NCBI GenBank assembly: GCA_947625625.1
Contig: CANQPC010000004.1
Coordinates: forward strand, 1 to 63,685
DNA length: 63,685 bases
Direction: 5' to 3'
From: an uncultured Bacilli bacterium
GTDB lineage: Bacteria > Bacillota_I > Bacilli_A > RF39 > UBA660
The notes below the pieces were generated by a model, which had not been told where the DNA came from, searched no databases, and worked only from the letters and a program-made list of their open reading frames with translations. Below, piece by piece: positions 736 to 53,197 of this stretch. Both the position numbers and the translations under genes were made by a program. Within the stretch, counting starts at the first letter, position 1. The number at the start of each line of letters is the position of its first letter.

Positions 736-855
736 TTATAAATCCTCCCTCTCTTTAATAAAAATTATAACACAAAATAGCAAAAATAATAACTTAAAAT
801 AGCAATTTATCTATATTTATCTCACTAAATGGGAAAATTAATATAGGTGAGATGT

Positions 856-1302
856 ATGATAGATTTTTCAAAACTTAAAGATATTAGAGAAGATAATGAT
901 ATAAGCCAAGAGAAAATGGCTGAAATATTAAAGGTTAATCGTTCTACTTATTCTTTATGGGAACTAGGCATTAATATTATTCCTCTTAAATATTTATGTG
1001 ATTTTGCTGATTATTTTAATTATAGTTTAGATTATGTATTAGGATTAACTAATAATAAATCTCATAAAAACTTAATTAAAGGTTTAAATTTGAAAACACT
1101 TGGAAATAATATGAAAACTATAAGATTAAAACATGAGTTATCACAAGAAAATATTGCTGATATACTTGATGTTACTCAAGCATGTATTACTAGATATGAA
1201 AAAGGTTTAATTTGTATTTCAACTTCTAATCTTTACAAGTTTTGTAAGGAATTTAAAATATCTATAAATGAAATTTGTGGCAAAGAGAAAATGAAAAGAT
1301 GA
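856..1302 (+). CDS. XRE-family transcriptional regulator with two tandem HTH domains
   Basis: Two copies of the HTH_3 pattern (ISQEKMAEILKVNRSTYSLWELG; LSQENIADILDVTQACITRYEKG). ATG 856 after 'aggtga' preferred over GTG 847. Confidence 0.75.
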   Translation: MIDFSKLKDIREDNDISQEKMAEILKVNRSTYSLWELGINIIPLKYLCDFADYFNYSLDYVLGLTNNKSHKNLIKGLNLKTLGNNMKTIRLKHELSQENIADILDVTQACITRYEKGLICISTSNLYKFCKEFKISINEICGKEKMKR

Positions 1303-1320
1303 ATTTTGAAATAGATAGTT

Positions 1321-2664: not shown

Positions 2665-2738
2665 ATCAACCAGACCTCCTTTTTAAAATAGCATTTATTA
2701 TATATGATAGTGCAATTTTGTTTTGACGGAATTTCTAA

Positions 2739-2798
2739 CCCCCTATAGATTTTGACGCATACATCAAAATCTGGGGGCTAAGGTTTAAGCAACCTTAG
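2739..2798. other. Candidate oriT: two adjacent inverted repeats upstream of mob
   Basis: IR1 agattttga(2747-2755)/tcaaaatct(2764-2772), flanked by ccccc/ggggg. IR2 ctaaggtt(2778-2785)/aaccttag(2791-2798). Lies 75-135 nt upstream of the mob start. Confidence 0.4.
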
Positions 2799-3146
2799 AA
2801 ACCGCTTGTCTTATTCTGTAATAATGCTAAGCAAAGCATAAGCATTAAAACTACATAAGACTTAGATAAAATAACAAGTATCACTTATTATTTTATCTAT
2901 GAAAATTATTCAAAGTAATTGCAAATTCCATAAGCAATTATTTTCATAATTTTATTTACAAACTATCGCCACTTTCATTGAACCTAGTTCAACAAAACGT
3001 GCCACGTTTGTTATAACTTTTTAGAAAAAAGTTAGCAAAAAATTTTTTTTATAGATAACATCAAAAAGCAAAAAATTATTTTTGTTTTTGAGATTTTTCC
3101 ATTATGTCTTTCCTTTTTTTTGTTAGTCAAGAATCAAGACGAGCAA

Positions 3147-5015
<1,869 letters not shown>

Positions 5016-5044
5016 TTAATCAATTCCTTTCTATCTCTTATTAT

Positions 5045-5096
5045 CAAAAAAGAGGCAACAAAGACTAAAAACAATTTTTATGTCTTTGACACCTCT
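5045..5096 (-). terminator. terminator-like hairpin immediately upstream of the IME recombinase start
   Basis: Minus strand: agaggtgtcaaagac-(16 nt)-gtctttgttgcctct followed by TTTTTT (A-run 5045-5050 on +). Confidence 0.4.
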
Positions 5097-5271
5097 AATG
5101 GTTATTTTATATAAATTGTACTTTTAACTTTGTTTTACATTAACCCCACCAAACATAAAACTTGTTTCTTGGTTGTTTATTATATAAAATTTTATATAAA
5201 AGTCAAGACATAAAGTCTATTTTAAGCCCAATATAACGAGTTTTTAGTGAAGTTGGTATATTTATCTAGTT

Positions 5272-5547
5272 TTAGTTTAATTGTTTAATAAAGGTTTCTA
5301 AATCTTTTAATTCTATACCTTTTGATAAATTATCAATATACAAAGTATTAGAGTAGTTAAATGCTAAAAATGTAGTTTGTTTAATAATTATTCTATGAGG
5401 TTCAATATATGTTATATTTGTTTTATCTATTTTACGAATATTACCATTGATAATAGTAGGAGTAGTATTACAAAAATTACATATAAATTCAATTTTCTTC
5501 TTTAATTCATTATCTAACTCTAATTTTGTTTTAATAATATTTACCAT
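5272..5547 (-). CDS. hypothetical protein (IME, upstream of recombinase)
   Basis: 91-aa ORF with 'aaggatagg' RBS-like sequence; no recognisable motif. Its position would suit an accessory or directionality factor, but this is unsupported. Confidence 0.45.
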   Translation of the reverse strand: MVNIIKTKLELDNELKKKIEFICNFCNTTPTIINGNIRKIDKTNITYIEPHRIIIKQTTFLAFNYSNTLYIDNLSKGIELKDLETFIKQLN

Positions 5548-5578
5548 ATAAACCTATCCTTTCTTTAATTTAAGCATT

Positions 5579-5611
5579 AAAAAAGTACCAACTTCTTTTG
5601 AAATTGATACT
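5579..5611 (-). terminator. Rho-independent terminator downstream of tRNA-Gly
   Basis: Minus strand agtatcaa-(12 nt)-ttggtact (8 bp incl. G.U) followed by TTTTT. Confidence 0.5.
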
Positions 5612-5632
5612 TTATATATTTAAGCCCTACTT

Positions 5633-5670
5633 TATAAAAGTTCGGACAGATTTCCCAATGGAGCAGGTGA
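5633..5670. repeat. Right copy of imperfect direct repeat (putative attR), overlapping the tRNA-Gly 3' end
   Basis: See 138-175; includes the last 11-12 nt of the tRNA gene. Confidence 0.5.
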
Positions 5671-5732
5671 TGAGAATCGAACTCACGCAGTCAGCTTGGA
5701 AGGCTGAGGTTCTACCATTAAACTACACCTGC
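5659..5732 (-). tRNA. tRNA-Gly (anticodon UCC), CCA encoded
   Basis: rc = gcaggtgtagtttaatggtagaacctcagccttccaagctgactgcgtgagttcgattctcatcacctgctcca. Acceptor gcaggtg/cacctgc, anticodon loop cuUCCaa, T-loop gttcgattc. Confidence 0.92.
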
Positions 5733-13297: not shown

Positions 13298-14052
13298 TGA
13301 AAGTTAGAGTTTTATCTTCTGGTAGTAAAGGTAATACTACTTATGTGGAAACTGATAATACAAAACTTCTTATTGATATTGGAAATACTTGCAAATATGT
13401 AAAAGAAAGGTTAGAGGAAATGAATGTTAATCCAGCTAATATTGATGGAATATTAATTACACATTTGCATATAGATCACATTAAGGGATTAAAAGTTTTT
13501 TGTAAGAAATATAATGTTAAGGTATACTTAACTGATATTATGAAAAAAGACCTTGATTATATTGATAATTATTCATTTATTTCAGATGATTTTGAAATAA
13601 ATGATATTCATGTTACTGCTATTAAAACTTCTCATGATACTGAAGATTCGAGGGGGTATATACTATCTAATGAAAATAAATCAATGGTGTATATTACCGA
13701 TACTGGGTATATTAATAAGAAGTATTTTGAAGTTTTAAAAAATAGAAATTTATATGTTATGGAATCTAATCATGATGTGGAAATGCTTACTAATGGTAGC
13801 TATCCTTTTCAGACTAGGCAGAGGATTCTTTCAGATAAGGGGCATCTTTCTAATTATGATTCTTCTAAGTATTTGAGTTCATTTATAGGAGACAATACTA
13901 AATATATAATGCTAGCTCACTTATCTCAAGAAAATAATACTGAAGAAATTGCTTACGAGACACTTATTAATAGATTAAATCTAGATAATAAACATGTTGA
14001 TAATATTATCATTGCTAGACAAGATGAAGAAACGGAATTGGTAACATTATGA
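13297..14052 (+). CDS. MBL-fold metallo-hydrolase (YycJ/WalJ-like)
   Basis: HLHIDH (HxHxDH) motif; position before rlmH as in Bacilli. Confidence 0.8.
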   Translation: MKVRVLSSGSKGNTTYVETDNTKLLIDIGNTCKYVKERLEEMNVNPANIDGILITHLHIDHIKGLKVFCKKYNVKVYLTDIMKKDLDYIDNYSFISDDFEINDIHVTAIKTSHDTEDSRGYILSNENKSMVYITDTGYINKKYFEVLKNRNLYVMESNHDVEMLTNGSYPFQTRQRILSDKGHLSNYDSSKYLSSFIGDNTKYIMLAHLSQENNTEEIAYETLINRLNLDNKHVDNIIIARQDEETELVTL

Positions 14053-14483
14053 TTAGAATAATATGTGTTGGAAAAATAAAAGAGGACTATATAAAAAGTG
14101 GAATCTTGGATTATGTTAAGAGAATAAATAAGTATCACAAGTTAGAAGTAGTTGAACTTATGGATAGTAATATTAATGAAGAGAGAGACAGAATATTTCG
14201 ATATATAAATAAAAAAGACTATAATATATCTTTAGATATTGAAGGAAATGAGCTTACATCTTTAGAATTTGCTAAGAAAATAGAAAATACTTTTATTAGT
14301 TATGCTAATATTAATTTTATAATAGGTGGTTCTGATGGACTACATTCTGATATTAAAAGTTTATGTAATTATAGTCTTTCTTTTTCGAAATTTACTTTTC
14401 CACATCAACTTTTTCGAATGATATTATTAGAGCAAATTTATAGGGCTTTTAAAATAATTAATAATGAAACATATCATAAGTAG
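14049..14483 (+). CDS. rlmH: 23S rRNA (pseudouridine1915-N3)-methyltransferase RlmH
   Basis: SPOUT fold pattern MIRIICVGKIK..., IIGGSDGL, and C-terminal LEQIYRAFKI. Confidence 0.88.
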   Translation: MIRIICVGKIKEDYIKSGILDYVKRINKYHKLEVVELMDSNINEERDRIFRYINKKDYNISLDIEGNELTSLEFAKKIENTFISYANINFIIGGSDGLHSDIKSLCNYSLSFSKFTFPHQLFRMILLEQIYRAFKIINNETYHK

Positions 14484-15778: not shown

Positions 15779-17665
15779 TTATCTATGTTTAGCTTTTTCA
15801 GGGCTAATTTCAGGGCTAACCATACTTAATGATGTTACGTTGGAAAAATTATTGTTATTATTGTTTGTGTTAGCTAATCTTTGATTTTTGAGATCTTGAA
15901 TAAAAGTTAGCATATTTTTTCTTATATCTTTTTTTCTTTGCAAAATTAATGCCATTAAATTGTGGTAATCTTTATTAAATTCTTTACTTATTTCGGTGCA
16001 ATATCTATGAAAGATTCTTTGATAAGCTTCATCACTATATTGCTCGACTTTTTCGATATTTTGAATTAGTTTATTAAAGTTTATATCAATGTCTCCTTTA
16101 ATATATCTTTTGAATATGGTATTATAAATTGTTTCTTTTTCTCCATATTCGGAATTTGGATTACAGTTGATGTCTAAGAAATTATAATTGGAATCTAAAT
16201 GTTTTAATGCTTGTTCTTTATCAATTCCTCTAATATTTCCGTAACTATCTGTAATAAAATTATTACCATGACTATCAAAATTACACAATAAATAGTCCAC
16301 TATAAATTCATTCATAAATTGTTCTATTTCTTTTTCTTTAAATATATAGTTTTCGTCATCTTGTGCTAGATAATAGTTTATACTTTGATTAGATTCGGTA
16401 ATTTTTTCTTGTATTGATCCACACATGGTATCATTTTCAATATAGTAACATGGAACTGCTCCTCGGCTATTAAAAAGTGATTGGACTTTTGAAGCACATT
16501 CTTGAACGATACCTCGAAATTTTTCTTGTTCGTAAGTATACTTTTTTTCGGCTGGTTTATATAGAAATGTTGATCCATATAGTTTGGTTTCGTACATTCT
16601 GCCAGTTCCGCCATAATTTACTTGAACGATGTTATCACTGTTTAATTTTGGTTCATCTTCTGATAAAATATCTATTTCATCGCCATTTTGAAATCCTTTT
16701 GCTTTAGCTTTTATATCTAAATAGGTAAAGAAGTCAATCATATTAATAATACCTACATTATTTTTGGAAATATTAGTTGTAGTAGTAACTAAATCTCCAG
16801 CGTTGTCACTATATTCTCCTCCGCTACTGAAAGTGGCACGACCTTCTAAAAAAAGCGAGTTGTAATTTATAAAATTACTTAGATCTTGTTCTTTTTCTCG
16901 AGAGGCCGTAGAATTTGTAGCCTTTATACTATAATTTTCTCCTTTAGCGTTAAATAGGGTAATGATGGGCTCTTGAGAGCAGAGTTTTTCAATAATATCA
17001 TTACATGATTCTTTTAATTTTTCATCTTTTTCAAGGCCGTTATTAATTATTTTATTTGTAATTAATCTTTTATAGTAGCTTTTTTTTCCTTCTCCTACTT
17101 TATATGGTAAAAAGTTAGGAAAGTCTTGACTTAATATTCCCATAAATAGTCTTTCAGGAGCTAATTTCATACTATAATTTACTACTAGGCTTCCTGGTGT
17201 TGTAAAGAAAAGGTAATTTTGGTTATTTGATGGTGATGATTGGTGGAGATAGTAATTACTATTTCCTAGCTTTTTTTCGACGTATTCTAATTCTTCAGAT
17301 AGTTTTTTATCAAAATTTTGATTGGCTAATCCTTCTTTTTCAATGTTCTTTTTGGCATAACCATTGGAAGAATTGGCTAGAATTATGTTTTCTAAATATT
17401 TGTCATAGTTGAAGTTATTGTAGTCATAAGATGTAATTATTTTTTCTACTTCATCATAAGTGTAATTAGTTTTTTTGTCATCACTTATTATGTAATATTT
17501 AATTATTTCTGATATTTTAATTGATAATTCTTCTGAATTTGTGGAATTTTCAATTAGTTTGTAAAAAAAGTTTTTATTATTAAGAAGTCTATTTATTCTT
17601 TTAGAAATTGTTTTAGCATCCCTATAATTTTTATGAAATAAAGTATTTAAAATCATGAATATCAC
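15779..17665 (-). CDS. large hypothetical protein with C-terminal atypical (PI3/4-kinase-like) kinase signature
   Basis: FLYKPAEKK...QECAS...DYLLCNFDSHGNNF...IRGIDKEQA resembles Lys/Glu, DxHxxN catalytic loop and a metal-binding Asp. N-terminal ~330 aa unrecognised; poly-Asn tract near the C-terminus. Confidence 0.45.
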   Translation of the reverse strand: MIFMILNTLFHKNYRDAKTISKRINRLLNNKNFFYKLIENSTNSEELSIKISEIIKYYIISDDKKTNYTYDEVEKIITSYDYNNFNYDKYLENIILANSSNGYAKKNIEKEGLANQNFDKKLSEELEYVEKKLGNSNYYLHQSSPSNNQNYLFFTTPGSLVVNYSMKLAPERLFMGILSQDFPNFLPYKVGEGKKSYYKRLITNKIINNGLEKDEKLKESCNDIIEKLCSQEPIITLFNAKGENYSIKATNSTASREKEQDLSNFINYNSLFLEGRATFSSGGEYSDNAGDLVTTTTNISKNNVGIINMIDFFTYLDIKAKAKGFQNGDEIDILSEDEPKLNSDNIVQVNYGGTGRMYETKLYGSTFLYKPAEKKYTYEQEKFRGIVQECASKVQSLFNSRGAVPCYYIENDTMCGSIQEKITESNQSINYYLAQDDENYIFKEKEIEQFMNEFIVDYLLCNFDSHGNNFITDSYGNIRGIDKEQALKHLDSNYNFLDINCNPNSEYGEKETIYNTIFKRYIKGDIDINFNKLIQNIEKVEQYSDEAYQRIFHRYCTEISKEFNKDYHNLMALILQRKKDIRKNMLTFIQDLKNQRLANTNNNNNNFSNVTSLSMVSPEISPEKAKHR

Positions 17666-17782
17666 CTTTATTTAATTATACTATGTGTGTTTTAAAAAGT
17701 AAATTAGCCTTTATGATAAAAAAATATAATATTTGATGAGATATTTTTTGAATTTTAGCATATTATTTTATGGGTGAATAGT

Positions 17783-18039
17783 ATGTTTCAGGTAGGTGAT
17801 TTGGTTACAAGAAAGTCTTATGATAATGACCTCGTTTTTAAGATTATTAGAATTGATGGAGATAATTATTATTTAAAGGGACTTGTGGTTAGATTATTTG
17901 CGGATAGTCCAAAAGATGATCTTAAAATGTATACTGATGATGAGAATGATGATTTTTTACCAGAAATTGATGGATATCGGAATTTAGAACGTAATGAATA
18001 TTTTTATTTACCAGGAAGAATACTTCATATTGATGGAGA
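17783..18039 (+). CDS. yabG: yabG 5' segment (sporulation-specific protease YabG, N-terminal ~86 aa), interrupted by a mobile element
   Basis: MFQVGDLVTRKSY...RLFADS...YFYLPGRILHIDGD is colinear with B. subtilis YabG MKFQIGDMVARKSY...RLIADS...HYFHMPGKVLHLDGD. The frame then runs 7 element-encoded codons to a stop at 18064. Confidence 0.85.
18032..18039. repeat. 8-bp core GATGGAGA at the left junction (attL) of the yabG-intervening element
   Basis: Identical octamer at 28753-28760; both begin on a codon boundary of the yabG frame. Confidence 0.8.
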
Positions 18040-18487
18040 CATAACCTTAAGTAAACAAAAATAATTCGAGCATAAACCCTTATAATTAAAGGAAAAGAGT
18101 AGAAAAATGATAAATACTTATTTTAATAAAAATGATGAAAAAATTAAAAAATCAGAAAAAAATTGGAAAAATTCTTGATATTAATTTAGTGGGTGATATC
18201 TCTTAAGTAACTTAATTTTACATAGGAATTGGTTAGATAATCAATTCTTTTTTTGTGACATAAAAAATGGTGGAAAGTGATAAAATAGTTCACTTTATTA
18301 CAGCTAAATGATTAAAACAAAATTTAATATTTACGATAAAATATTTAATAGAAGAATAAATTAATAAAACTGAAAAAGTATTAGATGCATCAATTATTAT
18401 TAAATACTTTACTACTTTAGTACATAACTCATATTCTTATTAATGAAAATGTTAACATATAAATTTAAAATGACTATGTGTTTAAAA

Positions 18488-19657
18488 TTATTTTTTATCA
18501 ATAACTATTAAAGGAATTGTCATTTCATCTTTTGATAACCCAGAATGATTACCTTTTGTAGCACCATAATAAGTAGTAATATCTTTTGAATTTATAAACT
18601 GATAATTTTTTCTACATAAACTTATATATTCGCCTAAACTATCTAATAATATCGAACTATCTATATTAGGGCCAAATACTTCATTTTCAATAAAATCAGA
18701 AGTTTTAAATAATAACATTTTTCCTTCATAATCAGAATTAAACTTTCTTACAAAATCTTCTTCTTTTCCTTTTTTAATGTAATAAGTAACCATTCCAAAA
18801 TCAATTCCTGGAAGTGCATAAAAGTAATCATTGTAATCTTCAAAATTCATAACTATATCTTTAGAAACATTTGTCTGGCCATGATCGGCAGTTACTAGTA
18901 CTAAAACATCATTTTTTAATAGTTTGGTTATTTGTAATTCAATTTCTTTTATTTTATCTTTAACTATTTTACTATCATAACCATTATCATGTTCTAATTC
19001 ATCTATATCTGGTATGTATAAATATGTAAAAGTTTCTTGGTTTAATGAGCAAATATCAACGATTTTAGTAAAAGCATCATCTAAATTATTATATGGTTTT
19101 CGAATTTCTTTGTCAGCAGTATAATTAGAAAAAACACTATCATAAATACTACTAGGAAACAAAACGGTAGTATGCACATTTAAAGTATTCAATTTTGATT
19201 TAAAATTAAATATATCTTCGACTTTTATTCCAAGTTCGTTTAAAGGGGTATTAGTTTCTCTTTTGGAGAAAAGAAGCGGATAATAATTTAACTTATGTTT
19301 TCGATCATAACTGTACCAACCAATTATTCCATGTTCAGATGGGTACGTAGCGGTTGCTAAAGTTGTAAGGACACAACCTGTCGAGCTTGGACTTACGGTT
19401 AATAAATCCATAATTTTATTTTTTTTTAAAATTGAGTCTTCTAAAATGTCAATTAAATTACTACCCATTCCATCAATTAACAAAAATACAGTATGCTTTT
19501 TTTTAGGTATAATGTTTTTTAACATTTGAATATTACTATTTTCTTGTACCTTAACACTATACCTACTATATAGCATTTTAACTAAATCTACTATGTTAGG
19601 TTCGTTATAATTTGGAATAATCATTTCTTCGTTATCCATAATTTTTTTTAAATTCAT
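18488..19657 (-). CDS. alkaline-phosphatase superfamily phosphodiesterase / nucleotide pyrophosphatase (NPP-like)
   Basis: Metal/nucleophile motifs LLIDGMGSN, SPSSTGCVLTTLATATYPSEHGI, IPDIDELEHDNG, VTADHGQ. Confidence 0.7.
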   Translation of the reverse strand: MNLKKIMDNEEMIIPNYNEPNIVDLVKMLYSRYSVKVQENSNIQMLKNIIPKKKHTVFLLIDGMGSNLIDILEDSILKKNKIMDLLTVSPSSTGCVLTTLATATYPSEHGIIGWYSYDRKHKLNYYPLLFSKRETNTPLNELGIKVEDIFNFKSKLNTLNVHTTVLFPSSIYDSVFSNYTADKEIRKPYNNLDDAFTKIVDICSLNQETFTYLYIPDIDELEHDNGYDSKIVKDKIKEIELQITKLLKNDVLVLVTADHGQTNVSKDIVMNFEDYNDYFYALPGIDFGMVTYYIKKGKEEDFVRKFNSDYEGKMLLFKTSDFIENEVFGPNIDSSILLDSLGEYISLCRKNYQFINSKDITTYYGATKGNHSGLSKDEMTIPLIVIDKK

Positions 19658-19680
19658 ATTTTTTGTTCTTCCTTTAATTT

Positions 19681-21438
19681 TTAAATTTTATTAGGTACTT
19701 TTAAACTTAGTATTTCTAATAATTTTTTATTTGTATTGTAAACATTTTCACTTAGTCCCAGCCATGATTTTCTTACATTATTATCTTTTTCAGATAATAT
19801 TTTATTTGATGAATAAAAACTATTATAAATATTATTCAGTTGATATAAGTACTCCGCTATATCATTTAGTGATTTTTCTTCAAACGATTTATTTAAAACT
19901 TTATTAACTTCTAACAGTTTTAAGGAAATATCTCTATCATAATTATTGACGATAGTATTTATGGGACCTATTTCATAATTATTTTCATATGCTTTATCTA
20001 ATAAAGATTTGATTCTTATCGTAGAATACAACAAATACAAACCAGTTTTACCACTCAAATCGCAAAATCTTTCTACATCGAAAATATAATCAGTCTCTCT
20101 TTGAGGTAATAAGTCGGCATATTTTAAGGTACTAATAGCGATAGTATTAGAAATTTGTTCTCTATCGTTTCCTAATATTGAAGGATTCATTTTTTTCAAA
20201 GTTTCTTCCTTCACTATTTCTATTAATCTCAAGAGTGGCATGACGTCTCCATCTCGTGTTTTAAAGGGCTTTCCATCTTTTCCATTCATTGTTCCGAAGC
20301 CAACAAACTCTAATTTGACATTATTAGGAACAATTCCTGATTTGTATGCTGCTCTAAACACCTGTTCAAAATGTAGTGACTGTCGTTTATCAACAACATA
20401 CCATATTTCATCAGGTGATAATGTTTTCATTCTTTGCCATAATGTTGCCAAATCGGTGGTTTCATAAGAAATAGCACCGTTTGACTTAACTAATAATAAT
20501 GGCGGCATTGGCCTTGTATCATCGGGTAAAGCAACATCCATGACTAATGCTCCTTCACTTTCATAAACCAAATTCTTCTCTTTTAAGTAATCTATAACTG
20601 AAGTTACATAAGGATCTGCATCGCTCTCTCCTAACCACAAATCAAAAGAAACATTTAATTTTTCATATATTTTTTTTATGTCATCGGTTGATATTTTTAC
20701 TATTTGTTTCCATAATTCATAGTAGCCTCTTTCTTTTTGCTGAAGTTTTGCAGTTATAATTCTTGCTTCTTGAAGATAATTTTCATCCTCTTTTGCTTTA
20801 CTACTGGCTATTGGATATAATTTTTCTAAATCAACATTTTTTATTGGACATCTTTTTGGGTAATCACCTTTATAGTTTTCATCAAAATATGGCCATTCGG
20901 GATGTCTTTTTTTTAATTCTAATATAATCAACCCCATAGGCCTACCCCAATCACCAAGATGAACATCACTAATAACATTATAATTTTTAAACTTTGCTAA
21001 TCGTTTTAAAGCTTCACCGATATTTGCACTTCTCAAATGACCAACATGTAAAGATTTGGCAATATTTGGCCCTCCATAATCTATAATGATCTTTTTAATG
21101 AAAGAATTTGAATGATTTTCATCATTTTTATTTAGTATACGGTTATTTTCCATAATTTTAGCTAATTCACTATCCGAAAACGTTAAATTAATGAAACCTG
21201 GTCCTGCAACATTTATGTTTGAATAACATGATTCCTTCTTTAATAAATCTGCTATTTTGTTAGCAATTGTTATCGGATTTTCTTTATATTTTTTGCTAAG
21301 CTGCATAACTCCATTATATTGATATTGCCCAAGATCAGGTCTAACTGATACTACTAAGTTAACATTATCATCACAATATCCGCACTTTTTTATTATATTT
21401 TTTAATTCTTTTTCCTGTTCTTTTATAAAATCTATCAT
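19681..21438 (-). CDS. argS: arginyl-tRNA synthetase, second copy (E. coli-type), element-encoded
   Basis: Arg_tRNA_synt_N pattern (QYQYNGVMQLSKK...VAGPGFINL), HIGH = SLHVGHLRSANIG, PFKTRDG in place of KMSKS, and a DALR anticodon-binding C-terminus. Confidence 0.85.
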   Translation of the reverse strand: MIDFIKEQEKELKNIIKKCGYCDDNVNLVVSVRPDLGQYQYNGVMQLSKKYKENPITIANKIADLLKKESCYSNINVAGPGFINLTFSDSELAKIMENNRILNKNDENHSNSFIKKIIIDYGGPNIAKSLHVGHLRSANIGEALKRLAKFKNYNVISDVHLGDWGRPMGLIILELKKRHPEWPYFDENYKGDYPKRCPIKNVDLEKLYPIASSKAKEDENYLQEARIITAKLQQKERGYYELWKQIVKISTDDIKKIYEKLNVSFDLWLGESDADPYVTSVIDYLKEKNLVYESEGALVMDVALPDDTRPMPPLLLVKSNGAISYETTDLATLWQRMKTLSPDEIWYVVDKRQSLHFEQVFRAAYKSGIVPNNVKLEFVGFGTMNGKDGKPFKTRDGDVMPLLRLIEIVKEETLKKMNPSILGNDREQISNTIAISTLKYADLLPQRETDYIFDVERFCDLSGKTGLYLLYSTIRIKSLLDKAYENNYEIGPINTIVNNYDRDISLKLLEVNKVLNKSFEEKSLNDIAEYLYQLNNIYNSFYSSNKILSEKDNNVRKSWLGLSENVYNTNKKLLEILSLKVPNKI

Positions 21439-21460
21439 TTTAACTCCTTATAATTCTTAA

Positions 21461-23278
21461 TTAAATTTTTCTTTTTAAACATTTTACTAAAAACCCATCA
21501 TCTAATTTTTCAATAATTTTGTCATATCTACAATTTAAATTTTCGTATTCTAATCGCTTTGCAAAAAATAATAAATCATTGTTTGATAAAGCTATTAAGC
21601 ATTTCATATAATCTCTCTCACTATTTATTTTATCATGTTTTTTTAATAATTCAAATATCTGATTACAAAAATTAGGAACATATTTTCTTAATTGTAGTTC
21701 GTAATTCAGTAATTTTTCCTTGTCACCTAGTATAGATATTTTTCGATCAGTAAATATCTGAGTATAAAATACAGCATCAAATACTTCAGAAGGATTTTTT
21801 AAGTTAAATTCTATATTCTTGTTATTATTAATTATGCCGATTATATGTTCATCTGTAATAATTTCTCCAGGATAAACAAAATCTGGAATTTTGCCATAAG
21901 CATAGTGAAGTTTAAAATACCATTGAGTAAATTCTTCTATAGCTTTTGCACTAGGTTCTTTAAGACATACTAGCATATCTAAATCAGATAGAAGTTTTTC
22001 TTTTCCTTTCGCGTAAGAACCAAACACAAATGAAAAATTCAAATTATTATCAAATATTTTGGAAATTGTATTAGTGTATTCCCTAATCATAACTTTCTTA
22101 ATCTTAGTTTTCTCACTACCATCTTTAAGTTCGTCAAAATTACTATTTTCATAAAAGTTTTCTATCTCCCTATTTATTAAAATTGGTTTTCTAATTTTTA
22201 CACCTTTATACAATATATATGAAGTATTTTCTCCGTAACCACCAAACTCGCAAAATCCTGTATCTATTTCTGGAACCATTTCATTATGTAAAACAAGTGA
22301 CTCGGGAATGCTTTCTATAAAATCAGATTCCCCAAATAAAGAAATATTCATATTTTCCTGTTTATATTCTGATCTTGAAAAATATTTTTTTAAATCAGAT
22401 ATATCACTATAAATCATAACTCTAAAGATAGGAGCATAGAATTCTTCATAATTATGTGGGTCGTCCGTAATTTTTTTGACGATAACAATAGGATTCATAG
22501 TTTTATTTTTAAAGTCTATTTCACCGCCTAATACTATATGATTGCTGTCTCTAATTAAAAGTCTTGATACATCCACTAGCATGTCGCTTTTTTTGATTGT
22601 TGTTTTTTGCTTAATATTTGATTCTATTTCTTTTATTAGTTTATTTATAAACTCTGAAGACAAATTCTCTTTACATAAAATTATATTAGGTTTAGAACAA
22701 TCTTGCCCATAATTAAACATAACAGTTTCTGCTATTTTTTTACTTGCTATGTCAATATTAGCATTATCTGAAATTACTACAGGGTTTTGGCCAACTCCAA
22801 AATATATAAACATAGTATTATTAGATATAGCTTTACTTACCTGTGCAGCATTATTAGGATTTCCAACAAAAATAACGACATCTGAATAAACAACACATTT
22901 CGTCAAATATTCGTACCTAGTCCTTTCATATAGATTTATATTGTAATCATTCAAGTTTAAAATATTATGTATTTTCTTTGATTGTGAAAGTGTGTAGGTA
23001 GATGGTCTATAATATGATTTAGAAGAACAAACACTAGGAACGATAGAATATAACATTAAAGAGTACAAAGGTAAATTCATTGGCAAATAAGATGAAATCA
23101 TCTTTACTTTTTTATTTCCATATTTTCTATTATTTTCTAATGCAAGTAGAGCTAATTTATATTCTTCTAAAGCAACACTTTCATTTTCTATTTCTTTTAA
23201 AATGCTTATTATAAAATCTTTATTTTTTTCAAGATTATTTTTAATTTCTTCTAATATATAAAATTTCATAACTATCAT
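21461..23278 (-). CDS. fusion protein: aldehyde-dehydrogenase-superfamily-like domain + Pol-beta/MNT-type nucleotidyltransferase domain
   Basis: ALDH-like FNYGQDCSKPN (catalytic Cys motif), EEFYAPIF, EFGGYG. NTase motif GSYAKGKEKLLSDLDMLV. The start overlaps the upstream stop (ATGA). Confidence 0.6.
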   Translation of the reverse strand: MIVMKFYILEEIKNNLEKNKDFIISILKEIENESVALEEYKLALLALENNRKYGNKKVKMISSYLPMNLPLYSLMLYSIVPSVCSSKSYYRPSTYTLSQSKKIHNILNLNDYNINLYERTRYEYLTKCVVYSDVVIFVGNPNNAAQVSKAISNNTMFIYFGVGQNPVVISDNANIDIASKKIAETVMFNYGQDCSKPNIILCKENLSSEFINKLIKEIESNIKQKTTIKKSDMLVDVSRLLIRDSNHIVLGGEIDFKNKTMNPIVIVKKITDDPHNYEEFYAPIFRVMIYSDISDLKKYFSRSEYKQENMNISLFGESDFIESIPESLVLHNEMVPEIDTGFCEFGGYGENTSYILYKGVKIRKPILINREIENFYENSNFDELKDGSEKTKIKKVMIREYTNTISKIFDNNLNFSFVFGSYAKGKEKLLSDLDMLVCLKEPSAKAIEEFTQWYFKLHYAYGKIPDFVYPGEIITDEHIIGIINNNKNIEFNLKNPSEVFDAVFYTQIFTDRKISILGDKEKLLNYELQLRKYVPNFCNQIFELLKKHDKINSERDYMKCLIALSNNDLLFFAKRLEYENLNCRYDKIIEKLDDGFLVKCLKRKI

Positions 23279-24612
23279 CCATTAAAATCCTTAATTAGTT
23301 TTCTTGCCTTTGAGGTAAACGCTTTATCAATCCAACCTTTTCTTGGACCGAATGATAAACTATCTGTGACAATTTTAACTCTATCTTTGTTTTGCAAAAT
23401 ATAATCAACTGGAACATATTCATCATTTACAATTGCCGCTACCATAGTGTTACCTATATCATCATGTAATTTATATGCAAAATCTATTGGTGTTGATCCT
23501 TTTGACAATTCAATAATATCACCTTTTGTTGTATAAACATATATCTTATCTGAAAATAACTCGCTCTTAACTTGCGATACAAACTCTCTGTTATCTCCAA
23601 ATATTGTATTTATTTCTGTTAATGATTTAAAAAACTGATATTTGCTTTTTAACTCTTCTTGCATAACATCTCTAGCCCTTCCTTTTTCTATAACCCAATA
23701 AATTGGAAGACCAAAAGATGCTACCTTATCCATATCAAAAGTTCTGATTTGTGTTTGTACTAATTTATCATTGGGGCCAAATACTGTTGTATGAAGTGAT
23801 CTATACATATTTGTCTTAGGATTACATATATAATCTTTAAATTTATCATTTATAGGATGATACTCTTTATGTATGTAGTATAAAGTTCTATAGCAATTTT
23901 CTACCTCATCTACCATTACTTTTAAAGCAAATAAATCGTGTATATCTGATAATCTATGTCCTTCACTTAATCTCTTATATATACCATATATATTTTTCGT
24001 TCTAACTTTTATTTCATTCGGAATATTCTTAAAATTTAAAATATTTTGTATTTTATAGAGCATTTCATATAAAAAGCAATTACTATCATTTTCTATAGAT
24101 ATTTTTTTCTCTTCGATTCTTTTATATATGTCTGGCTTTAAGTATTTTAATGATAAATCTTCTAGTTCACTTTTTATTCTATATGCACCAATACAATAAG
24201 CAAGTGGAACAAATATTTCCATAGTTTCAAGTGCGTTTTCTTTCTGTTTAAATTCACTTTTAAATTGCAAAGTCCTCATATTATGTAATCTATCAGCAAG
24301 TTTTATTATAATTATTCTAACATCTTCAGTTATTCCAGTAATTATTTTTCTTGTATTTGCTAAATTTTGTTCCTGTTTGCTTGAAAAATTCATTTTTGAT
24401 AACTTTGTTACTCCATCTACTAATTTGGCTATATCTTTATTAAATTCTTCAATAATAGTTTCCTTAATTGTTTCTGTATCCTCTAATGTATCATGTAGGA
24501 GTCTTGCACATATTGTATCTCTATCGGCATGCATCTCGGCCAAAATAAATGCAACATTTAATGGATGACTTATGTAGGGCTCTCCACTTTGTCTAAATTG
24601 TCCACTGTGCAT
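23275..24612 (-). CDS. RelA/SpoT homologue, HD-SYNTH-TGS only (no C-terminal regulatory domains); synthetase likely inactive
   Basis: HD motifs SGEPYISHP, LLHDTLEDT, LADRLHNMRTL. Synthetase region YRSLHTTVFGP...VQTQIRT (Gln where the family has the catalytic Glu of ExQIRT). TGS IYVYTTKGDIIELSKGSTPIDFAY. Ends just after TGS. Confidence 0.85.
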   Translation of the reverse strand: MHSGQFRQSGEPYISHPLNVAFILAEMHADRDTICARLLHDTLEDTETIKETIIEEFNKDIAKLVDGVTKLSKMNFSSKQEQNLANTRKIITGITEDVRIIIIKLADRLHNMRTLQFKSEFKQKENALETMEIFVPLAYCIGAYRIKSELEDLSLKYLKPDIYKRIEEKKISIENDSNCFLYEMLYKIQNILNFKNIPNEIKVRTKNIYGIYKRLSEGHRLSDIHDLFALKVMVDEVENCYRTLYYIHKEYHPINDKFKDYICNPKTNMYRSLHTTVFGPNDKLVQTQIRTFDMDKVASFGLPIYWVIEKGRARDVMQEELKSKYQFFKSLTEINTIFGDNREFVSQVKSELFSDKIYVYTTKGDIIELSKGSTPIDFAYKLHDDIGNTMVAAIVNDEYVPVDYILQNKDRVKIVTDSLSFGPRKGWIDKAFTSKARKLIKDFNG

Positions 24613-24892
24613 GTTTTCCGCATAACTATAGGCTTTTTTTAATCACTTACTATTTTTGTTTTTGACAGAAGAAAAAATTATAGAAGAATAATTTAATGTA
24701 TTCTAAATTTGATTTATTTTTAAAGAAATCGTTTAATAATTCATTTTTCATAACATGTCTCCAATTGCATAATAAAAATATTGAATTAAATGTACACCTT
24801 TATTTCTAAATTGTCAATATCTTTTTTATAAAAGAAACTGCATAAGTGTGTTTATAATAGTATTTATGTTTCTTTGCCAAGAAGGAGGAAGG

Positions 24893-25237
24893 TTGAAAAA
24901 ATTAGTAAAAGGAGCTATCTTTTATGCTAGATTAGATCCTATTGTTGGTAGTGAGCAGGGTGGTGATCGTCCTGTTTTAATATTGTAAAATGATGTTGGT
25001 AATAAATATAGTACAACGACAATCGTAGCTCCAATAACAAAGGAAGAAAAAACGAAAAAAATACCAACTCATGTAAAAATAAAGTCTTTTGATAAAATAC
25101 GACCTAATTCATACGCCTTACTAGAGCAAATCCGAACTATTGATAAGTTAAGGCTAAAAGGTTTTGTTTGTAATATAGATGAAGAGGATATGAAAAAAGT
25201 AAATGATGCAATTCGTATTTCATTAGATTTAATGTAG
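24893..25237 (+). pseudogene. mazF: mazF/ndoA (PemK-family) toxin gene with an in-frame TAA nonsense codon
   Basis: The translation [48 protein letters not shown]...PTHVKI...LLEQIRTIDKLRL is colinear with B. subtilis EndoA. TAA at 24986-24988 sits where EndoA has Gln (VLVIQND). No mazE is recognisable upstream. Confidence 0.8.
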
Positions 25238-25304
25238 AAATTTTGGTATTTTTTTTTTGAATTAATATTATTGAAGTTAATAAGTTTAAAATGGGAGGGA
25301 ATGT

Positions 25305-25430
25305 ATGGAAAAAAGAAAAAATGGAGAATTGGTAATAAATATTTATGATGAAAAAGGCGTAACAATTAGTGAAAAAATATTAGAAATTTTTGAAAAATAT
25401 TTAATGTCAAGTCTGCAAAATGGCGAATGA
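25305..25430 (+). CDS. 41-aa ORF upstream of the recombinase pair (function unknown; candidate accessory factor)
   Basis: ATG 25305 preceded by gggaggga; MEKRKNGELVINIYDEKGVTISEKILEIFEKYLMSSLQNGE. Confidence 0.3.
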   Translation: MEKRKNGELVINIYDEKGVTISEKILEIFEKYLMSSLQNGE

Positions 25431-25507
25431 TACACAATTTGTACAGTGGATGGTTATTTTGATTTTTATTATGATTGGTTTGGTGATTAAAAAAGGAGGT
25501 AATGTTT

Positions 25508-27127
25508 ATGTATGATTTAAACGACCAAAGTAGGGGTAGGAGGGCTGGATCATATAGTAGGTTATCAAAAGAAGATTTAGAAAAAGTACAAAAAGGTTTA
25601 ATGGAAAGTATAAGTATTGCCAATCAGAAAAAAATAATTACTAGATATGCTGATGAACATGGTATTGAAATAGTAGAATATTATAGTGATGATGGCTTTA
25701 GTGGAGGTAATTTTGATCGACCTGATTTTAAGAGAATGATAAACGATATTGAGTGTGGAAAAATAGATTGTGTTATTACAAAGGATACTTCTCGATTAGG
25801 TAGAGAATTTATTGAAACTAGTCAGTATATATTTAAATACTTTCCTGAAAAAAATGTAAGGTACATTTCTATATTAGATAATTATGATAGTTTTAATCCA
25901 AATGGTTCAGAGGAAATGCTGCCTTTTAAGAATGTAATTAATGATATGTATTTAAGACAAGCATCAATAAAATCTAAAAGTACAAGGCATGACTTGATGA
26001 AAGAAGGTTATTTTGTAGGTAGTAGTGTTCCTTATGGATATAAAAGGTCAGCAGAAGATAGTCGTAAGTTTGTTATTGATAAATATGCTGCTAATATTGT
26101 AAAAAGAATATTTGAGATGAAATGTAATGGAGTTACGGATGGAATGATTGCTCGTACTTTAACTAATGAAGGAATCCTTCCTCCAAATGTATATAAAAAT
26201 CGAAAAATGAATAAAGTGACAGTTACGACTAATTTGTGGAAGAACGCTTCAATAAAAACGATAATATGTAATCCTGTATATATTGGAACATTGATACAAT
26301 GCAAATATGAAAGAGTTAGTTTAAAATCTAAAAAGAAGAGATTATTACCTAAAGATAAGTGGATAGTTAAAACTAATGTTCATGAACCTATTATTGATAA
26401 AGAGACTTTTGAAAAAGCCAATAATATAAAGAAAAAAGAAATGTCTGTTGATACTCGATGCAGAAAGTATGATTATTTACTGAAAGGTTTAGTAATATGT
26501 GAAGAGTGCCAAAGACCACTGTTAGTTAGGAGGTGTAAAACAAAGAGTAAAAATGGTGAGGAAGATGTTTATCCAATATATTGTTGTAGAACTTATGCTA
26601 CTTACCGAAATAATATATGTAGTATGCATTATTATAGAGAGGATGCTTTAAATGAACTAGTATTAAACGAATTAAGACAACTTTTATTACAATTTTCTGA
26701 GGAAAAAAAGTTAGATGATAAATATAAAATAGTGTTAGCTAATTCTAATTTGATAGAAAAATACGAAAGAGAATATTCTGTTAATACTAAAAAATTAGAA
26801 AATATCGATAAAGCAATAAGTGAATTATATAAAGATAAAGTATCAAATATAATAACTATGGATGAATTTACTTCAATTAAAAACAATTTAGAAAAAGAGA
26901 AAATAAACATTGAAAAGAATATATCTGATTTAAAAATAATGATTGAAAATTCAAAACCTTCTGTGATGGATGAGACAAAAAGAAAGAAAGTTATTAATAA
27001 TTTTTTACAAATGAAAAATCCAACAAAGCAAATGATGCAAGATTTGATAAACAAAATTACGATAGATAAAAATAAAAATGTAAAAATTTATTATAATTTT
27101 AATATTAAGGAAGGTATGTATGAATAG
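25508..27127 (+). CDS. large serine recombinase A of the yabG-intervening element
   Basis: AGSYSRLSKEDL catalytic Ser region, TKDTSRLGRE, recombinase domain (VPYGYKR), Cys-rich zinc ribbon (CEECQRP...CCRTY...C), coiled-coil C-terminus. ATG 25508 (9 nt after AGGAGG) preferred to 25502. Confidence 0.9.
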   Translation: MYDLNDQSRGRRAGSYSRLSKEDLEKVQKGLMESISIANQKKIITRYADEHGIEIVEYYSDDGFSGGNFDRPDFKRMINDIECGKIDCVITKDTSRLGREFIETSQYIFKYFPEKNVRYISILDNYDSFNPNGSEEMLPFKNVINDMYLRQASIKSKSTRHDLMKEGYFVGSSVPYGYKRSAEDSRKFVIDKYAANIVKRIFEMKCNGVTDGMIARTLTNEGILPPNVYKNRKMNKVTVTTNLWKNASIKTIICNPVYIGTLIQCKYERVSLKSKKKRLLPKDKWIVKTNVHEPIIDKETFEKANNIKKKEMSVDTRCRKYDYLLKGLVICEECQRPLLVRRCKTKSKNGEEDVYPIYCCRTYATYRNNICSMHYYREDALNELVLNELRQLLLQFSEEKKLDDKYKIVLANSNLIEKYEREYSVNTKKLENIDKAISELYKDKVSNIITMDEFTSIKNNLEKEKINIEKNISDLKIMIENSKPSVMDETKRKKVINNFLQMKNPTKQMMQDLINKITIDKNKNVKIYYNFNIKEGMYE

Positions 27128-28691
27128 TAAAATGGTTGTAGGATATGACAGACTTTCAAAAGAAGACTTGGAAAAAGAAAATGATTATTCTAAAAGTATA
27201 AATAATCAGATGCTGATGATAAGAAAATTCGCTCAAAAAATTGGTCTTAAAATTGTCAAAGAATATATAGATGATGGATATTCGGGAATTAATTTTGATC
27301 GACCTAGTTTTGAGGAGTTAATTCAAGATATTATAGATGGTAAAATTTCTACTATTATAACTAAAGATATGTCGAGACTCGGTAGAGAAATGATTGAAAC
27401 AATTTACTATATAACGGAATTTTTCCCAGCTTATGATGTAAGATACATTGCTATTAATGATAGTTACGATAGTGCTGATTTAGATAGAGACCAAAAACAT
27501 TTTAATATAGTTATGCAGTCAGTCTTAAATGATAGATATGTTAAAGATGTTTCGGATAAAAGAAAAAAAACAGCACAATTAAAGACATCACAAGGTGAGT
27601 TTATAGGATGTAAAAGTCCTTATGGATATAAAATTGTAAAAAAAGATGGTAAAAGAACATTGGAAATTGATGAATATGCTGCTAATATTGTAAAGAGAAT
27701 ATTTGTTTCTATTGCAAGTGGTATGTCAAGGAAAGAAGTTGCCGAAGAATTAAATCGTGGTAAGATTGTGCCTCCAATGTTATATATGAAAATGACACCA
27801 AGTAAGAAAAAAAATTATTATAATGATTGGAGCGATTCAATAATTTATAGGATACTTAGAAATAAGACATACACGGGAAGGCTAGTGAAAAGAAAAAGTA
27901 CCAAAAATAATTATAAAGATAAGAAAAGAAATTATATTGCAATAAGAGATAGAGAAACAACTGATATTATGCATCCAATAATTATTTCTGATAAGTTATT
28001 TAATGAAGCAAATGAAAGAATTAAAACGCTAAAAAGAAAAGAAAAAAATGGCTATACTGATTCTTACAATGGAGCATTTAGTGGATTAGTAATATGTGGT
28101 GAATGTGGTAGAGTTATGACAGCTTGTAGATTTACTAAAAATGGAAAAGTTAGATATCGTTTTGAGTGTACTTCAGTTAAAAATAGAGTACATTGTCCGA
28201 ATAGATCAATATATGATACGAAGTTACAAAGTATAGTTGGTGATGCAATAAAAGATTTAATTAATAATTATGCAAATGGTGAAAAAATTGTCAATAAAGT
28301 GGCAAAAGACTGGATGCAGAAAAAAAGATTTAATACAAAAATAGCTAATTTAAAAAATAGCATCGAATTACATGATACGAATATTAGAAATTTATATATA
28401 AAAAAAACACACGAAGAAATATCATTGGAAGAATTTTTAGAGAAAAAAAAGATAGAAAGTGAAATAAGAGAGCAAGAAGAGAATGAATTAAAAAGACTAA
28501 TAACTGAAAATGATATTGAAATAGAAAAAAATGATATTCTCGATAAATATAATAAATTTATCAATAATGAAATATTATTAAAAGATTATATACGGGACTT
28601 TATCAAAGAAATTGTTATATATAAAGATAACACTATACAACTATCTTTTAAATTTGGCTTAGGTGAACCTAAAAAAATAAAGTTATATTAG
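27120..28691 (+). CDS. large serine recombinase B of the yabG-intervening element
   Basis: VVGYDRLSKEDL, TKDMSRLGRE, SPYGYK, CGECGRVMTAC...CTS...CPN zinc ribbon. Overlaps recombinase A by 8 nt; stop is 62 nt from the right core. Confidence 0.9.
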   Translation: MNSKMVVGYDRLSKEDLEKENDYSKSINNQMLMIRKFAQKIGLKIVKEYIDDGYSGINFDRPSFEELIQDIIDGKISTIITKDMSRLGREMIETIYYITEFFPAYDVRYIAINDSYDSADLDRDQKHFNIVMQSVLNDRYVKDVSDKRKKTAQLKTSQGEFIGCKSPYGYKIVKKDGKRTLEIDEYAANIVKRIFVSIASGMSRKEVAEELNRGKIVPPMLYMKMTPSKKKNYYNDWSDSIIYRILRNKTYTGRLVKRKSTKNNYKDKKRNYIAIRDRETTDIMHPIIISDKLFNEANERIKTLKRKEKNGYTDSYNGAFSGLVICGECGRVMTACRFTKNGKVRYRFECTSVKNRVHCPNRSIYDTKLQSIVGDAIKDLINNYANGEKIVNKVAKDWMQKKRFNTKIANLKNSIELHDTNIRNLYIKKTHEEISLEEFLEKKKIESEIREQEENELKRLITENDIEIEKNDILDKYNKFINNEILLKDYIRDFIKEIVIYKDNTIQLSFKFGLGEPKKIKLY

Positions 28692-28752
28692 GGTAGATTA
28701 ACAGGCTTAATCTTTATTTTATACCTTTATCTTTTATTTGCAAAAATCTGTG

Positions 28753-28760
28753 GATGGAGA
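28753..28760. repeat. 8-bp core GATGGAGA at the right junction (attR) of the yabG-intervening element
   Basis: Identical to 18032-18039 and in the same codon phase. Confidence 0.8.
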
Positions 28761-29265
28761 TAATGATTATTTAGAAAAATGTATGAAATTTTATAAAAAA
28801 AATAGGCTTAAAGCTTTTGGAGTTTTCTCTAAAGAAAGTGATTTGGTAGATAGTGTAAAAATTAATTTAGAAAAGTATAATCCAGATATTTTAGTGATAA
28901 CGGGGCATGATGCATATTATAGAAAGAAAAGAAAAGATGATAATTATAAAAATACTGGTAATTTTGTCGAAGCAGTAAAAACTGCGAGAAGGTATGAAGG
29001 TTCGCATGAAAAATTAATTATTATAGCGGGAGCTTGTCAGTCTAATTATGAAGAGTTAATTAAAGCTGGGGCTAATTTTGCTTCGAGTCCTAAGAGAATA
29101 AATATTCATGCTTTGGATCCTGCTATTGTGGCATCTTGTCTTGCTTTTTCTGATAAAAATAATAATATTGACCTTATGAAAATTTTAGATAAAACTAAAT
29201 ATGGGTCTGACGGAATAGGGGGGATTATAACTAAGGGAACTATGTATATTGGTTATCCTAGATAA
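28753..29265 (+). CDS. yabG: yabG 3' segment (C-terminal ~170 aa of sporulation protease YabG)
   Basis: DGDNDYLEKCMKFYKK...YNPDILVITGHDAYY...LIIIAGACQSNYEELIKAGANFASSPKRINIHALDP matches B. subtilis YabG ...DGDEAYLKKCLNVYKK...YRPDILVITGHDAY...FAGACQSHFESLIRAGANFASSPSRVNIHALDP. Confidence 0.88.
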   Translation, partial: DGDNDYLEKCMKFYKKNRLKAFGVFSKESDLVDSVKINLEKYNPDILVITGHDAYYRKKRKDDNYKNTGNFVEAVKTARRYEGSHEKLIIIAGACQSNYEELIKAGANFASSPKRINIHALDPAIVASCLAFSDKNNNIDLMKILDKTKYGSDGIGGIITKGTMYIGYPR

Positions 29266-29931: not shown

Positions 29932-30001
29932 ATTTTGTATAATTGTTAATTTTTTTCATATTATTTAGTTTTATGCATAATATTTGCTAGGAGGAATATT
30001 A

Positions 30002-43335: not shown

Positions 43336-43725
43336 GTGAAATGTTTGGAAGTGATTTATATAAGAGTTAAAGTTAAAGGACACCTAAGGAATATTTCTTC
43401 TTCAGAAGTTAGTAACTTTGATGAAAAAGGAATAAAAAATAAAAATAAAATTACATATAATAATGATAATATTAAAAATACAATTAAATTTAATAATAAA
43501 GAAGTAATACTAATTAGAGAAGGAATAGACTTTATAAATACTTTTATTTTTAATGAAGAAAAGAGTTATAGTAACTATTTATTAAAAGATAATAATTATA
43601 GTTTTGATATTGATGTTACTACATTAAAAGTAAGTGTTAAAGATAATAGTGTTATGATTAAATATAAAATAGATGAAACTGACATGCAATATGAATTTTA
43701 TATAGAAGTGAGTGAAATATTATGA
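43336..43725 (+). CDS. DUF1934 (YwiB-like) protein
   Basis: Small beta-rich protein immediately upstream of, and overlapping, argS, as in Bacilli. Confidence 0.6.
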   Translation: MKCLEVIYIRVKVKGHLRNISSSEVSNFDEKGIKNKNKITYNNDNIKNTIKFNNKEVILIREGIDFINTFIFNEEKSYSNYLLKDNNYSFDIDVTTLKVSVKDNSVMIKYKIDETDMQYEFYIEVSEIL

Positions 43726-50266: not shown

Positions 50267-50486
50267 TTTTATTACCTCCGTTTTCTTTATCTTAAGCATA
50301 CGCATTATGCTTACTACTTAAAGATAACATATAATCATAATAAAATCAAGCTTTTTCATAAAATTATGTCAAATTATTTTGAAAATTAACTTACTGTATA
50401 ACTTTGTGTCTAATGAAGATAATATTATTGTAAGTTTTTTTTTAATATGTTATAATAAAGTCGAAATTTAAGGAGGTAATAGTTAT

Positions 50487-53115: not shown

Positions 53116-53197
53116 AATTTACCTCTTTTCTTTTTCTCACTAAATATTATGTTAAATAATTGAGAATATGAAAAAAATAGTTTATAAAAAAAGAAAG

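Follow-up and report, generated by a model that had tools for sequence, protein, structure and literature searches.

Published examples of interrupted sporulation genes comprise sigK, spsM, spoVFB, spoVR, gerE and yabG (PMC4191935, PMC5595907, PMC10747680). In the skin element (in sigK) and SPbeta (in spsM) of B. subtilis, and likewise in skin of C. difficile, excision by a large serine recombinase (LSR) in the mother cell rebuilds the sporulation gene, and a sporulation sigma factor sets the timing by acting on the recombinase or on its recombination directionality factor (RDF). We describe here an element that occupies positions 18040-28760 of contig CANQPC010000004.1 (assembly GCA_947625625.1, from an uncultured Bacilli bacterium; the whole stretch of 63,685 nt is called the window below) and splits yabG. 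Skin and SPbeta are prophages or prophage remnants with one recombinase, while the element in the window is non-viral and has two; their timing has been shown, and we infer it for the element described here. This element is a cassette of a yabG-inserting family, and we consider it probable that its pair of recombinases excises it as a circle and restores the gene at a time set by the mother cell.

The target gene itself is not new, because an insertion in yabG has already been published. The yin element of C. botulinum V73 is a predicted prophage that splits yabG; its excision restores the gene and also yields a circle, the restored form rises during sporulation, and in the public genomes available in November 2023 its authors saw no further insertion in yabG (PMC10747680). 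The element in the window is like yin in that yabG is split, a large serine recombinase is carried and a short direct repeat is present at both junctions. The two differ in most other respects: yin has one recombinase, located next to the 5′ half of yabG, a 14-bp repeat, a 72-aa candidate RDF and the character of a prophage, whereas the window's element, compared with that description, has two coupled recombinases (LSR-A and LSR-B) next to the 3′ half, an 8-bp repeat, a 41-aa open reading frame (ORF) and no phage genes. Moreover, yin is known from one isolate, whereas the family to which the window's element belongs is found in many gut assemblies.

In design, the nearest described system is gin, a non-viral element in gerE of Bacillus cereus ATCC10987 that is excised during sporulation and has a 9-bp core; several serine recombinase genes are present in it, two of them as the operon girAB, yet GirC and GirX suffice and girAB is dispensable (PMC5595907). 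Both elements are non-viral, lack transfer genes, sit in a mother-cell gene, carry several serine recombinases and occur as identical copies across strains, and in gin a small directionality factor adjoins the working recombinase. In contrast to gin, the coupled pair is the sole recombinase set here and is kept in every family member, and the target gene and the host group are different. There is also a likeness to the staphylococcal cassette chromosome (SCC) elements such as SCCmec with CcrAB: these also have a two-gene LSR operon and cargo that varies, lack machinery for their own transfer and form composite arrays in tandem at a single site (the last seen in a relative, locus L177, not in the window). 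However, the insertion site of SCC is the 3′-end of rlmH, a gene that survives the insertion, while in the window rlmH (14049-14483) is intact and unoccupied and the element lies within yabG. On the CcrB model LSR-A and LSR-B score 132.8 and 73.5 bits, far below the cut-off of 900, and thus they are not Ccr orthologues. What places the element in the gene-intervening class is the combination of a split mother-cell gene, a recombinase of its own and a core that would allow in-frame excision.

The break in yabG is an 8-bp repeat, GATGGAGA, at codons 84-86, with its left copy (attL core) at 18032-18039 and its right copy (attR core) at 28753-28760, both on the plus strand and in frame in both halves of the gene. 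The 5′ part of yabG (17783-18039, plus strand) encodes residues 1-86, through Asp-Gly-Asp; with the gene split, the ORF starts from ATG at 17783, reads ...YFYLPGRILHIDGD, and runs through seven foreign codons (ITLSKQK) to a stop at 18062-18064. The 3′ part (28753-29265, plus strand) encodes residues 84-253 with the conserved GHD and ACQS motifs, and the ORF 28738-29265 that contains it reads ...DGDNDYLEKC...ITGHDAY...AGACQS.... An earlier note on this DNA, made by a model from the sequence, had assigned these two ORFs to YabG and placed the octamer at these positions; translation and inspection bear out both assignments. The octamer by itself is weak evidence, since 6 copies are seen in the window versus 1.3 expected; it carries weight because it is placed exactly where the homology to yabG breaks. 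We also asked whether the target might be the best-conserved part of yabG; this was ruled out, as the 40-nt segment around the core ranks 366 of 719.

Removal of 10,721 bp in silico produces a 762-nt ORF for 253 aa, with a predicted chromosomal junction (attB) ...CTTCATATTGATGGAGATAATGATTAT... and a predicted circle junction (attP) ...AAAATCTGTGGATGGAGACATAACCTTAAG.... The joined ORF matches the Pfam family Peptidase_U57 (PF05582) with an E-value of 2e-86 and exceeds the cut-off of the NCBIfam YabG equivalog TIGR02855 (276.6 bits versus 270.4); only the joined ORF makes a complete YabG, each half by itself being incomplete. A scan with one genome per species gave 80 loci with an uninterrupted yabG, all of them from uncultured gut 'Bacilli/Tenericutes' genomes and the best with 86-87% amino acid identity. 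Against 79 intact homologues the joined gene is colinear codon for codon, with zero indels at the junction, and it retains all 79 of the 79 positions that are ≥95% conserved among them. These results bear out the claim of the earlier note that the deletion restores a colinear YabG.

In intact relatives the gene order is rlmH-rsmA-yabG-veg-spoVG-yabP-divIC-ftsH with yabG uninterrupted; in the window it is rlmH-rsmA-[628-aa orphan ORF]-yabG-veg-spoVG-yabP-yabQ-divIC. The conserved flanks agree with the order rsmA-(yabG)-veg-spoVG given in the earlier note, which had passed over the orphan ORF between rsmA and yabG. This ORF (15779-17665, minus strand) has no family match and is missing in the five intact relatives compared, in which ∼60-90 nt separate the end of rsmA from yabG; it seems to be an insertion of its own, specific to the strain.

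A second, independent assembly made from a different sample (locus L184) carries the same element, the attR junction and the 3′ part of yabG at 99.97-100% identity, and therefore the split is not an assembly artefact. The LSR-B gene of that copy has a 114-bp deletion (L184 position 3199, corresponding to 28361-28474 of the window), which, given the low coverage of the contig, could be either a true variant or an error of assembly.

The window's element belongs to a widespread family for which the insertion point is always the same set of three yabG codons. Homologues of LSR-B at 47-62% identity form >100 clusters. The genomic context was viewed for six groups of them with 48-62% identity (P0002, P0016, P0057, P0029, P0021 and P0113), and all six share one layout: an ORF of 41-45 aa, orthologues of LSR-A and then LSR-B, a 3′ fragment of yabG and finally veg, the yabG fragment starting at the same Asp-Gly-Asp codons in six groups out of six. 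As variants of this layout, a PemK toxin gene often precedes the small ORF and a small extra ORF sometimes follows LSR-B. On the element side of the junction the sequence before GATGG is ...C(A/C)GCA or ...CACCA. Both ends of an element lay inside one fetched locus for the second element of L177; for the other relatives it is the right end that was seen. As a control, among the matches listed, none of 80 loci with distant LSRs (28-39% identity) was next to yabG.

LSR-A and LSR-B make up two orthologous lines, with 55-70% identity within a line and 30-37% between the lines; therefore the pair is old and has been inherited together. The family hosts vary, the majority being uncultured Bacilli, and so does the cargo: RHS/YD toxins, SUKH/SMI1 and other immunity-type proteins, surface proteins, regulators and nucleoside-salvage genes. 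In many family members LSR-B is followed by a protein of 130-190 aa with the resolvase catalytic domain only (L086 11620-12015, L081 9017-9409, L083 11583-12158, L178 5932-6429), in which the nucleophile Ser is replaced (AYIRVANK versus YxRLS); this protein may be a regulatory subunit.

Members of the family have moved between hosts. Loci L086 and L087 carry elements with 100% identity to each other over 12.1 kb in chromosomal flanks of 60-80% identity, and the identity stops directly after ...CAGCAGATG. An identical element in diverged flanks indicates a recent transfer and pins the boundary; since the L086 host reads GATGCC here, the crossover must fall within GATG. The single element of L176 abuts yabG and is identical to the first element of L177; in L177 (8551-19900) one yabG gene holds two family elements in tandem, both of them with a recombinase pair of their own. 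There, after ...CCAGATGG, a second complete element of ∼8 kb follows and then yabG, and it is at this point that the identity between L176 and L177 ends. In L176 and L177 SipL and YunB adjoin veg, which suggests a host of another lineage, probably Clostridia-like.

The recombination module of the window's element is at its right end. LSR-A (25502-27127, plus strand, 541 aa) and LSR-B (27120-28691, plus strand, 523 aa) overlap by 8 nt and are translationally coupled; each has the Resolvase, Recombinase and Zn_ribbon_recom domains together with the catalytic Arg-x-Ser (RLS in LSR-A) and SRLGR motifs. R11, S13 and the SRLGR motif of LSR-B are invariant across 20 homologues, and LSR-A is 56-64% identical to its orthologues and 31-36% identical to LSR-B. 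The catalytic domains of both are closest to TnpX, and LSR-A gives a full-length alignment with the SPbeta integrase. The stop codon of LSR-B at 28691 is 61 nt before the right core, so that the two LSR genes lie close to it, as the earlier note had observed. Upstream of the pair, the 41-aa ORF (25305-25430, plus strand) is conserved and has the same place in all eight elements examined; it carries the motif ELVxCIYDExGxSIxEKILEIFxKY..LQN. Family, domain and PHROG searches with this ORF gave no match, and we regard it as a candidate RDF or as a possible regulator of the two recombinases. At the opposite end, the left arm (18040-18487) is non-coding, with no notable ORF in six frames, and its first ∼40 nt would form the P′ arm of attP.

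The insert is a non-viral element, not a prophage. Pfam and PHROG searches found no phage structural, lysis, replication or conjugation genes in it, its only PHROG matches being integrase, MazF, a phage arginyl-tRNA synthetase (ArgRS) family and HD hydrolases; LSR-B is at most ∼35% identical to anything in the phage collection and is thus without a close phage relative. The G+C content of the element (26%) is close to that of the flanks (26-29%). Rfam gave zero matches in the element, a scan of metagenome contigs with LSR-B as the sole query gave zero matches as well, and a database lookup found no record of the exact LSR-B sequence.

The earlier note had described the other sporulation genes of the window as intact, and this agrees with our searches: SpoIVA (688 bits, end to end) and YabQ pass equivalog models, and YabP and SpoVG have Pfam matches. 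An identical promoter-like box, TCATATT-N13-CATAATAT, is located upstream of both spoIVA (53144-53171, minus strand) and yabP (29956-29983, plus strand), and in a sister species, too, it precedes yabP. In B. subtilis spoIVA and yabP are sigmaE-dependent, and the box fits the sigmaE consensus ZHATAXX-14-CATACAHT; it would give, if the assignment of the sigma factor is right, a sigmaE-type consensus for this uncultured lineage. Looser copies, with TCATAAT or TCATAAA as the first heptamer, are at 50335-50364 and 54066-54092. Upstream of yabG itself there is a box at 17739-17766 (plus strand), AGATATT-N13-CATATTAT, which resembles the sigmaE-type boxes of the host.

Seven related elements conserve the sequence GTAT(G/T)AA-N14-CATA(A/G)nTT within a few bases of the small ORF's ribosome-binding site, on its upstream side; in both L083 and L089 it is preceded by a terminator-like hairpin, the end of the toxin gene. 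This family box resembles the TCATATT-N13-CATAATAT boxes of spoIVA and yabP, and, as far as its bases tell, it would make a poor sigmaA promoter and a moderate sigmaE-type one. Such a box is suggestive of a recombinase operon switched on in the mother cell. The counterpart in the window, GAATTAA-N13-AATAAGTT at 25259-25286 (plus strand), is degenerate. A scan for sigma-70 promoters and terminators was uninformative in DNA this AT-rich, with 87 sites found versus 90 expected. In other carriers 54-56 of 56 conserved positions are kept in the yabG pieces (48 of 56 in one carrier); such undecayed halves fit continued use of the gene, and a recent insertion would fit equally.

The mechanism that we propose would run as follows. 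From the module at the right end, the 41-aa ORF followed by two coupled LSR genes, LSR-A and LSR-B would be made and would, probably in concert and perhaps with the small protein as the directionality factor, recombine attL with attR; the crossover would be inside the shared core, most likely within its first four bases, GATG. As an outcome the 10.7-kb circle would be released and yabG rejoined in frame. YabG is needed only late in the mother cell, and this cell is given up once sporulation is complete; because of this the element may sit in yabG without cost, being excised in the mother cell and kept integrated in the chromosome of the spore. In the family, excision is most likely timed by the mother-cell (sigmaE-type) promoter. 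Presumably the copy in the window still excises, does so specifically in sporulation, needs both recombinases and has its direction controlled by the small ORF. The earlier note's interpretation was right in kind: a foreign LSR element splitting a mother-cell sporulation gene at a short direct repeat is supported, as is restoration of the frame by a precise excision, and mother-cell excision, the key step, is a prediction.

The cargo lies between the left arm and the recombination module, with four genes on the minus strand followed by a toxin pseudogene. The four encode a phosphodiesterase of the alkaline-phosphatase superfamily (18488-19657, 389 aa; Pfam Phosphodiest, 1.8e-20), a second ArgRS (19681-21438, 585 aa; it passes TIGR00456 with 362.5 bits), a fusion of an aldehyde-dehydrogenase (ALDH)/LuxC-like domain with a Pol-beta-type nucleotidyltransferase (NTase) (21461-23278, 605 aa; assigned by domain matches, as is the next one) and a Rel/SpoT homologue with HD, synthetase and TGS domains (23275-24612, 445 aa). 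The fusion belongs to a narrow family of 62 protein clusters. The ArgRS is an extra copy, because the host has its own argS at 43722-45329 (535 aa, 445.7 bits on the argS model), the product of which is 25% identical to the element-borne enzyme. The mazF/pemK pseudogene (24893-25237, plus strand) is interrupted by a single in-frame TAA (24986-24988), the homologues having the Gln codon CAA in its place.

In related gut bacteria the same genes form a conserved operon: Rel-like, ALDH/NTase, ArgRS, optionally a short-chain dehydrogenase/reductase (SDR), and phosphodiesterase. The full form (L092 6359-13578 and L181 8343-15097) has a leader region of 48 codons, in which there is a terminator-like hairpin, and encodes a Rel-like protein of 480 aa, an ArgRS of 583 aa and the optional SDR, while its counterpart in the window, 18488-24612, is 5′-truncated. 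The copies are 78, 56, 68 and 50% identical to the window's proteins; the phosphodiesterase is 50-64% identical to its counterparts in L092 and L094. In L181-L183 the operon is chromosomal, flanked by padR and gatCAB and without a recombinase gene in the vicinity; the copies in L092 and L093 adjoin a recombinase remnant and an insertion sequence. The cargo is unusual, as the earlier note had stated, and it is a truncated copy of an operon which is chromosomal in related bacteria; since the truncation is at the promoter end, the cargo appears to be a captured passenger rather than an adapted payload. PADLOC made no defence-system assignment in the cargo, and Rfam gave zero matches in the leader of the full operon.

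Related cargo was also seen in another setting. In L094 (6235-13950), which is from a related gut genome, and also in L095, the SxxK motif of the active site is the point at which a class B penicillin-binding protein gene is split. Each junction shows a 12-bp core, ACTTTTAAAATT, and the ∼5.7-kb insert between them carries the same ALDH/NTase and phosphodiesterase genes and one serine recombinase of 577 aa. When joined, the two halves give an ORF of 635 aa that matches the SpoVD equivalog model over its whole length, with 772.9 bits against a cut-off of 688. Full-text literature searches found no paper on a spoVD-intervening element.

Several observations weigh against the mechanism proposed above, and they have to be considered together with other explanations of the split. 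No excised form or circle was found, and no intact YabG with >86% identity was present among 5.8 billion proteins, so that no empty-site strain of the host species is at hand. The dyad symmetry of the reconstructed attP is weak (13/24, ∼1% per position before correction for ∼17 positions tested). The sigma-box consensus is loose in DNA of 27% G+C, where a relaxed pattern matches 21 times in the window, and the window's own box has A in place of a conserved C and a 13-nt spacer. In B. subtilis and C. difficile, mutation of yabG does not abolish spore formation; therefore restoration of YabG may not be required at all. This dispensability of YabG for spore formation in the model species agrees with a rival explanation that we hold possible, if clearly less probable than developmental excision: the element could be an SCC-like cassette for which yabG is a mere docking site, integrated and excised by its recombinase pair for horizontal spread, in the manner of CcrAB and SCCmec. 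Excision would then have no developmental role, and the carriers would live without YabG or with altered spores. The coupled LSR pair, variable cargo, tandem arrays and identical elements across hosts are SCC hallmarks, and the lack of phage and conjugation genes in the insert points the same way; in yin, too, excised forms were present at all time points (PMC10747680). Yet the insertion is within a coding sequence and all examined yabG halves are nevertheless intact, with conserved residues; the CATA-type box before the recombinase operon of the relatives resembles mother-cell rather than sigmaA promoters; and related cargo is found in the recombinase element that splits spoVD, a second mother-cell gene, which suggests that genes required by the mother cell alone are preferred.

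The window's copy looks worn and reduced. The nonsense codon in mazF is a sign of wear; the antitoxin gene is absent upstream, though relatives have one (68 aa in L083); the Rel-like gene lacks ∼27 N-terminal codons and the upstream leader of the full copies; and the sigma70_r4 gene and the small resolvase-domain ORF, both present in many relatives, are missing. Along with the degenerate promoter-like box and the LSR-B deletion in the L184 copy of the same element, these losses could mean that the window holds a decaying immobilised remnant and that yabG is permanently dead in this strain, both eroding. We find this unlikely: both recombinase ORFs are full length with their catalytic motifs, the two cores are identical and intact, and yabG keeps all of the 79 conserved positions and its promoter-like box, which one would not expect if the gene had long been out of use, even if a recent insertion would look alike. 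As to a chimeric contig, the source is uncultured and the contig probably comes from a metagenome assembly; still, the junctions are base-precise, in frame and share a common core, the right junction is repeated in an independent sample and the same architecture recurs in many independent assemblies, by which this explanation is effectively refuted. Excision by the LSR pair with restoration of yabG in the mother cell is, of these explanations, the one that we favor.

The window contains one more recombinase-bearing element, at its left end (847-5732). It has a helix-turn-helix regulator gene (847-1302), a Mob_Pre relaxase gene (1321-2664, minus strand) and a gene for a 622-aa large serine recombinase (3147-5015, minus strand) adjoining a tRNA gene (5662-5732, minus strand). 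This is probably an integrative mobilizable element, and its left boundary may be located beyond the left end of the window.

What appears to be new here is the element family with its fixed GATGG target in yabG and its coupled recombinase pair with a conserved small partner, as well as the wide spread and recent transfer of this family among uncultured gut spore-formers; full-text literature searches found no description of such a two-recombinase yabG family. One could speculate further, quite tentatively and with a good chance of being wrong, that SCC-like cassettes of gut spore-formers dock within mother-cell genes, that a sigmaE-fired LSR pair rebuilds the gene and releases circles, and that sporulation thereby serves as a donor step, with the related single-recombinase element docking in spoVD alongside the docking of pair elements in yabG. 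If this is true, cassettes with toxins, immunity genes and metabolic operons would be freed upon lysis of the mother cell.

Interruption of yabG is thus not a one-off of a single C. botulinum isolate: the gene is a fixed target of non-viral cassettes in gut Firmicutes, and the family links the gene-intervening elements of sporulation with two-recombinase cassettes of SCC type. Natural LSR pairs with a defined site and a candidate 41-aa partner could serve studies of directionality as well as genome engineering. The family also offers a way into the sporulation of uncultured small-genome gut Bacilli, in assemblies of which a split yabG or spoVD could be misread as loss of a sporulation gene.

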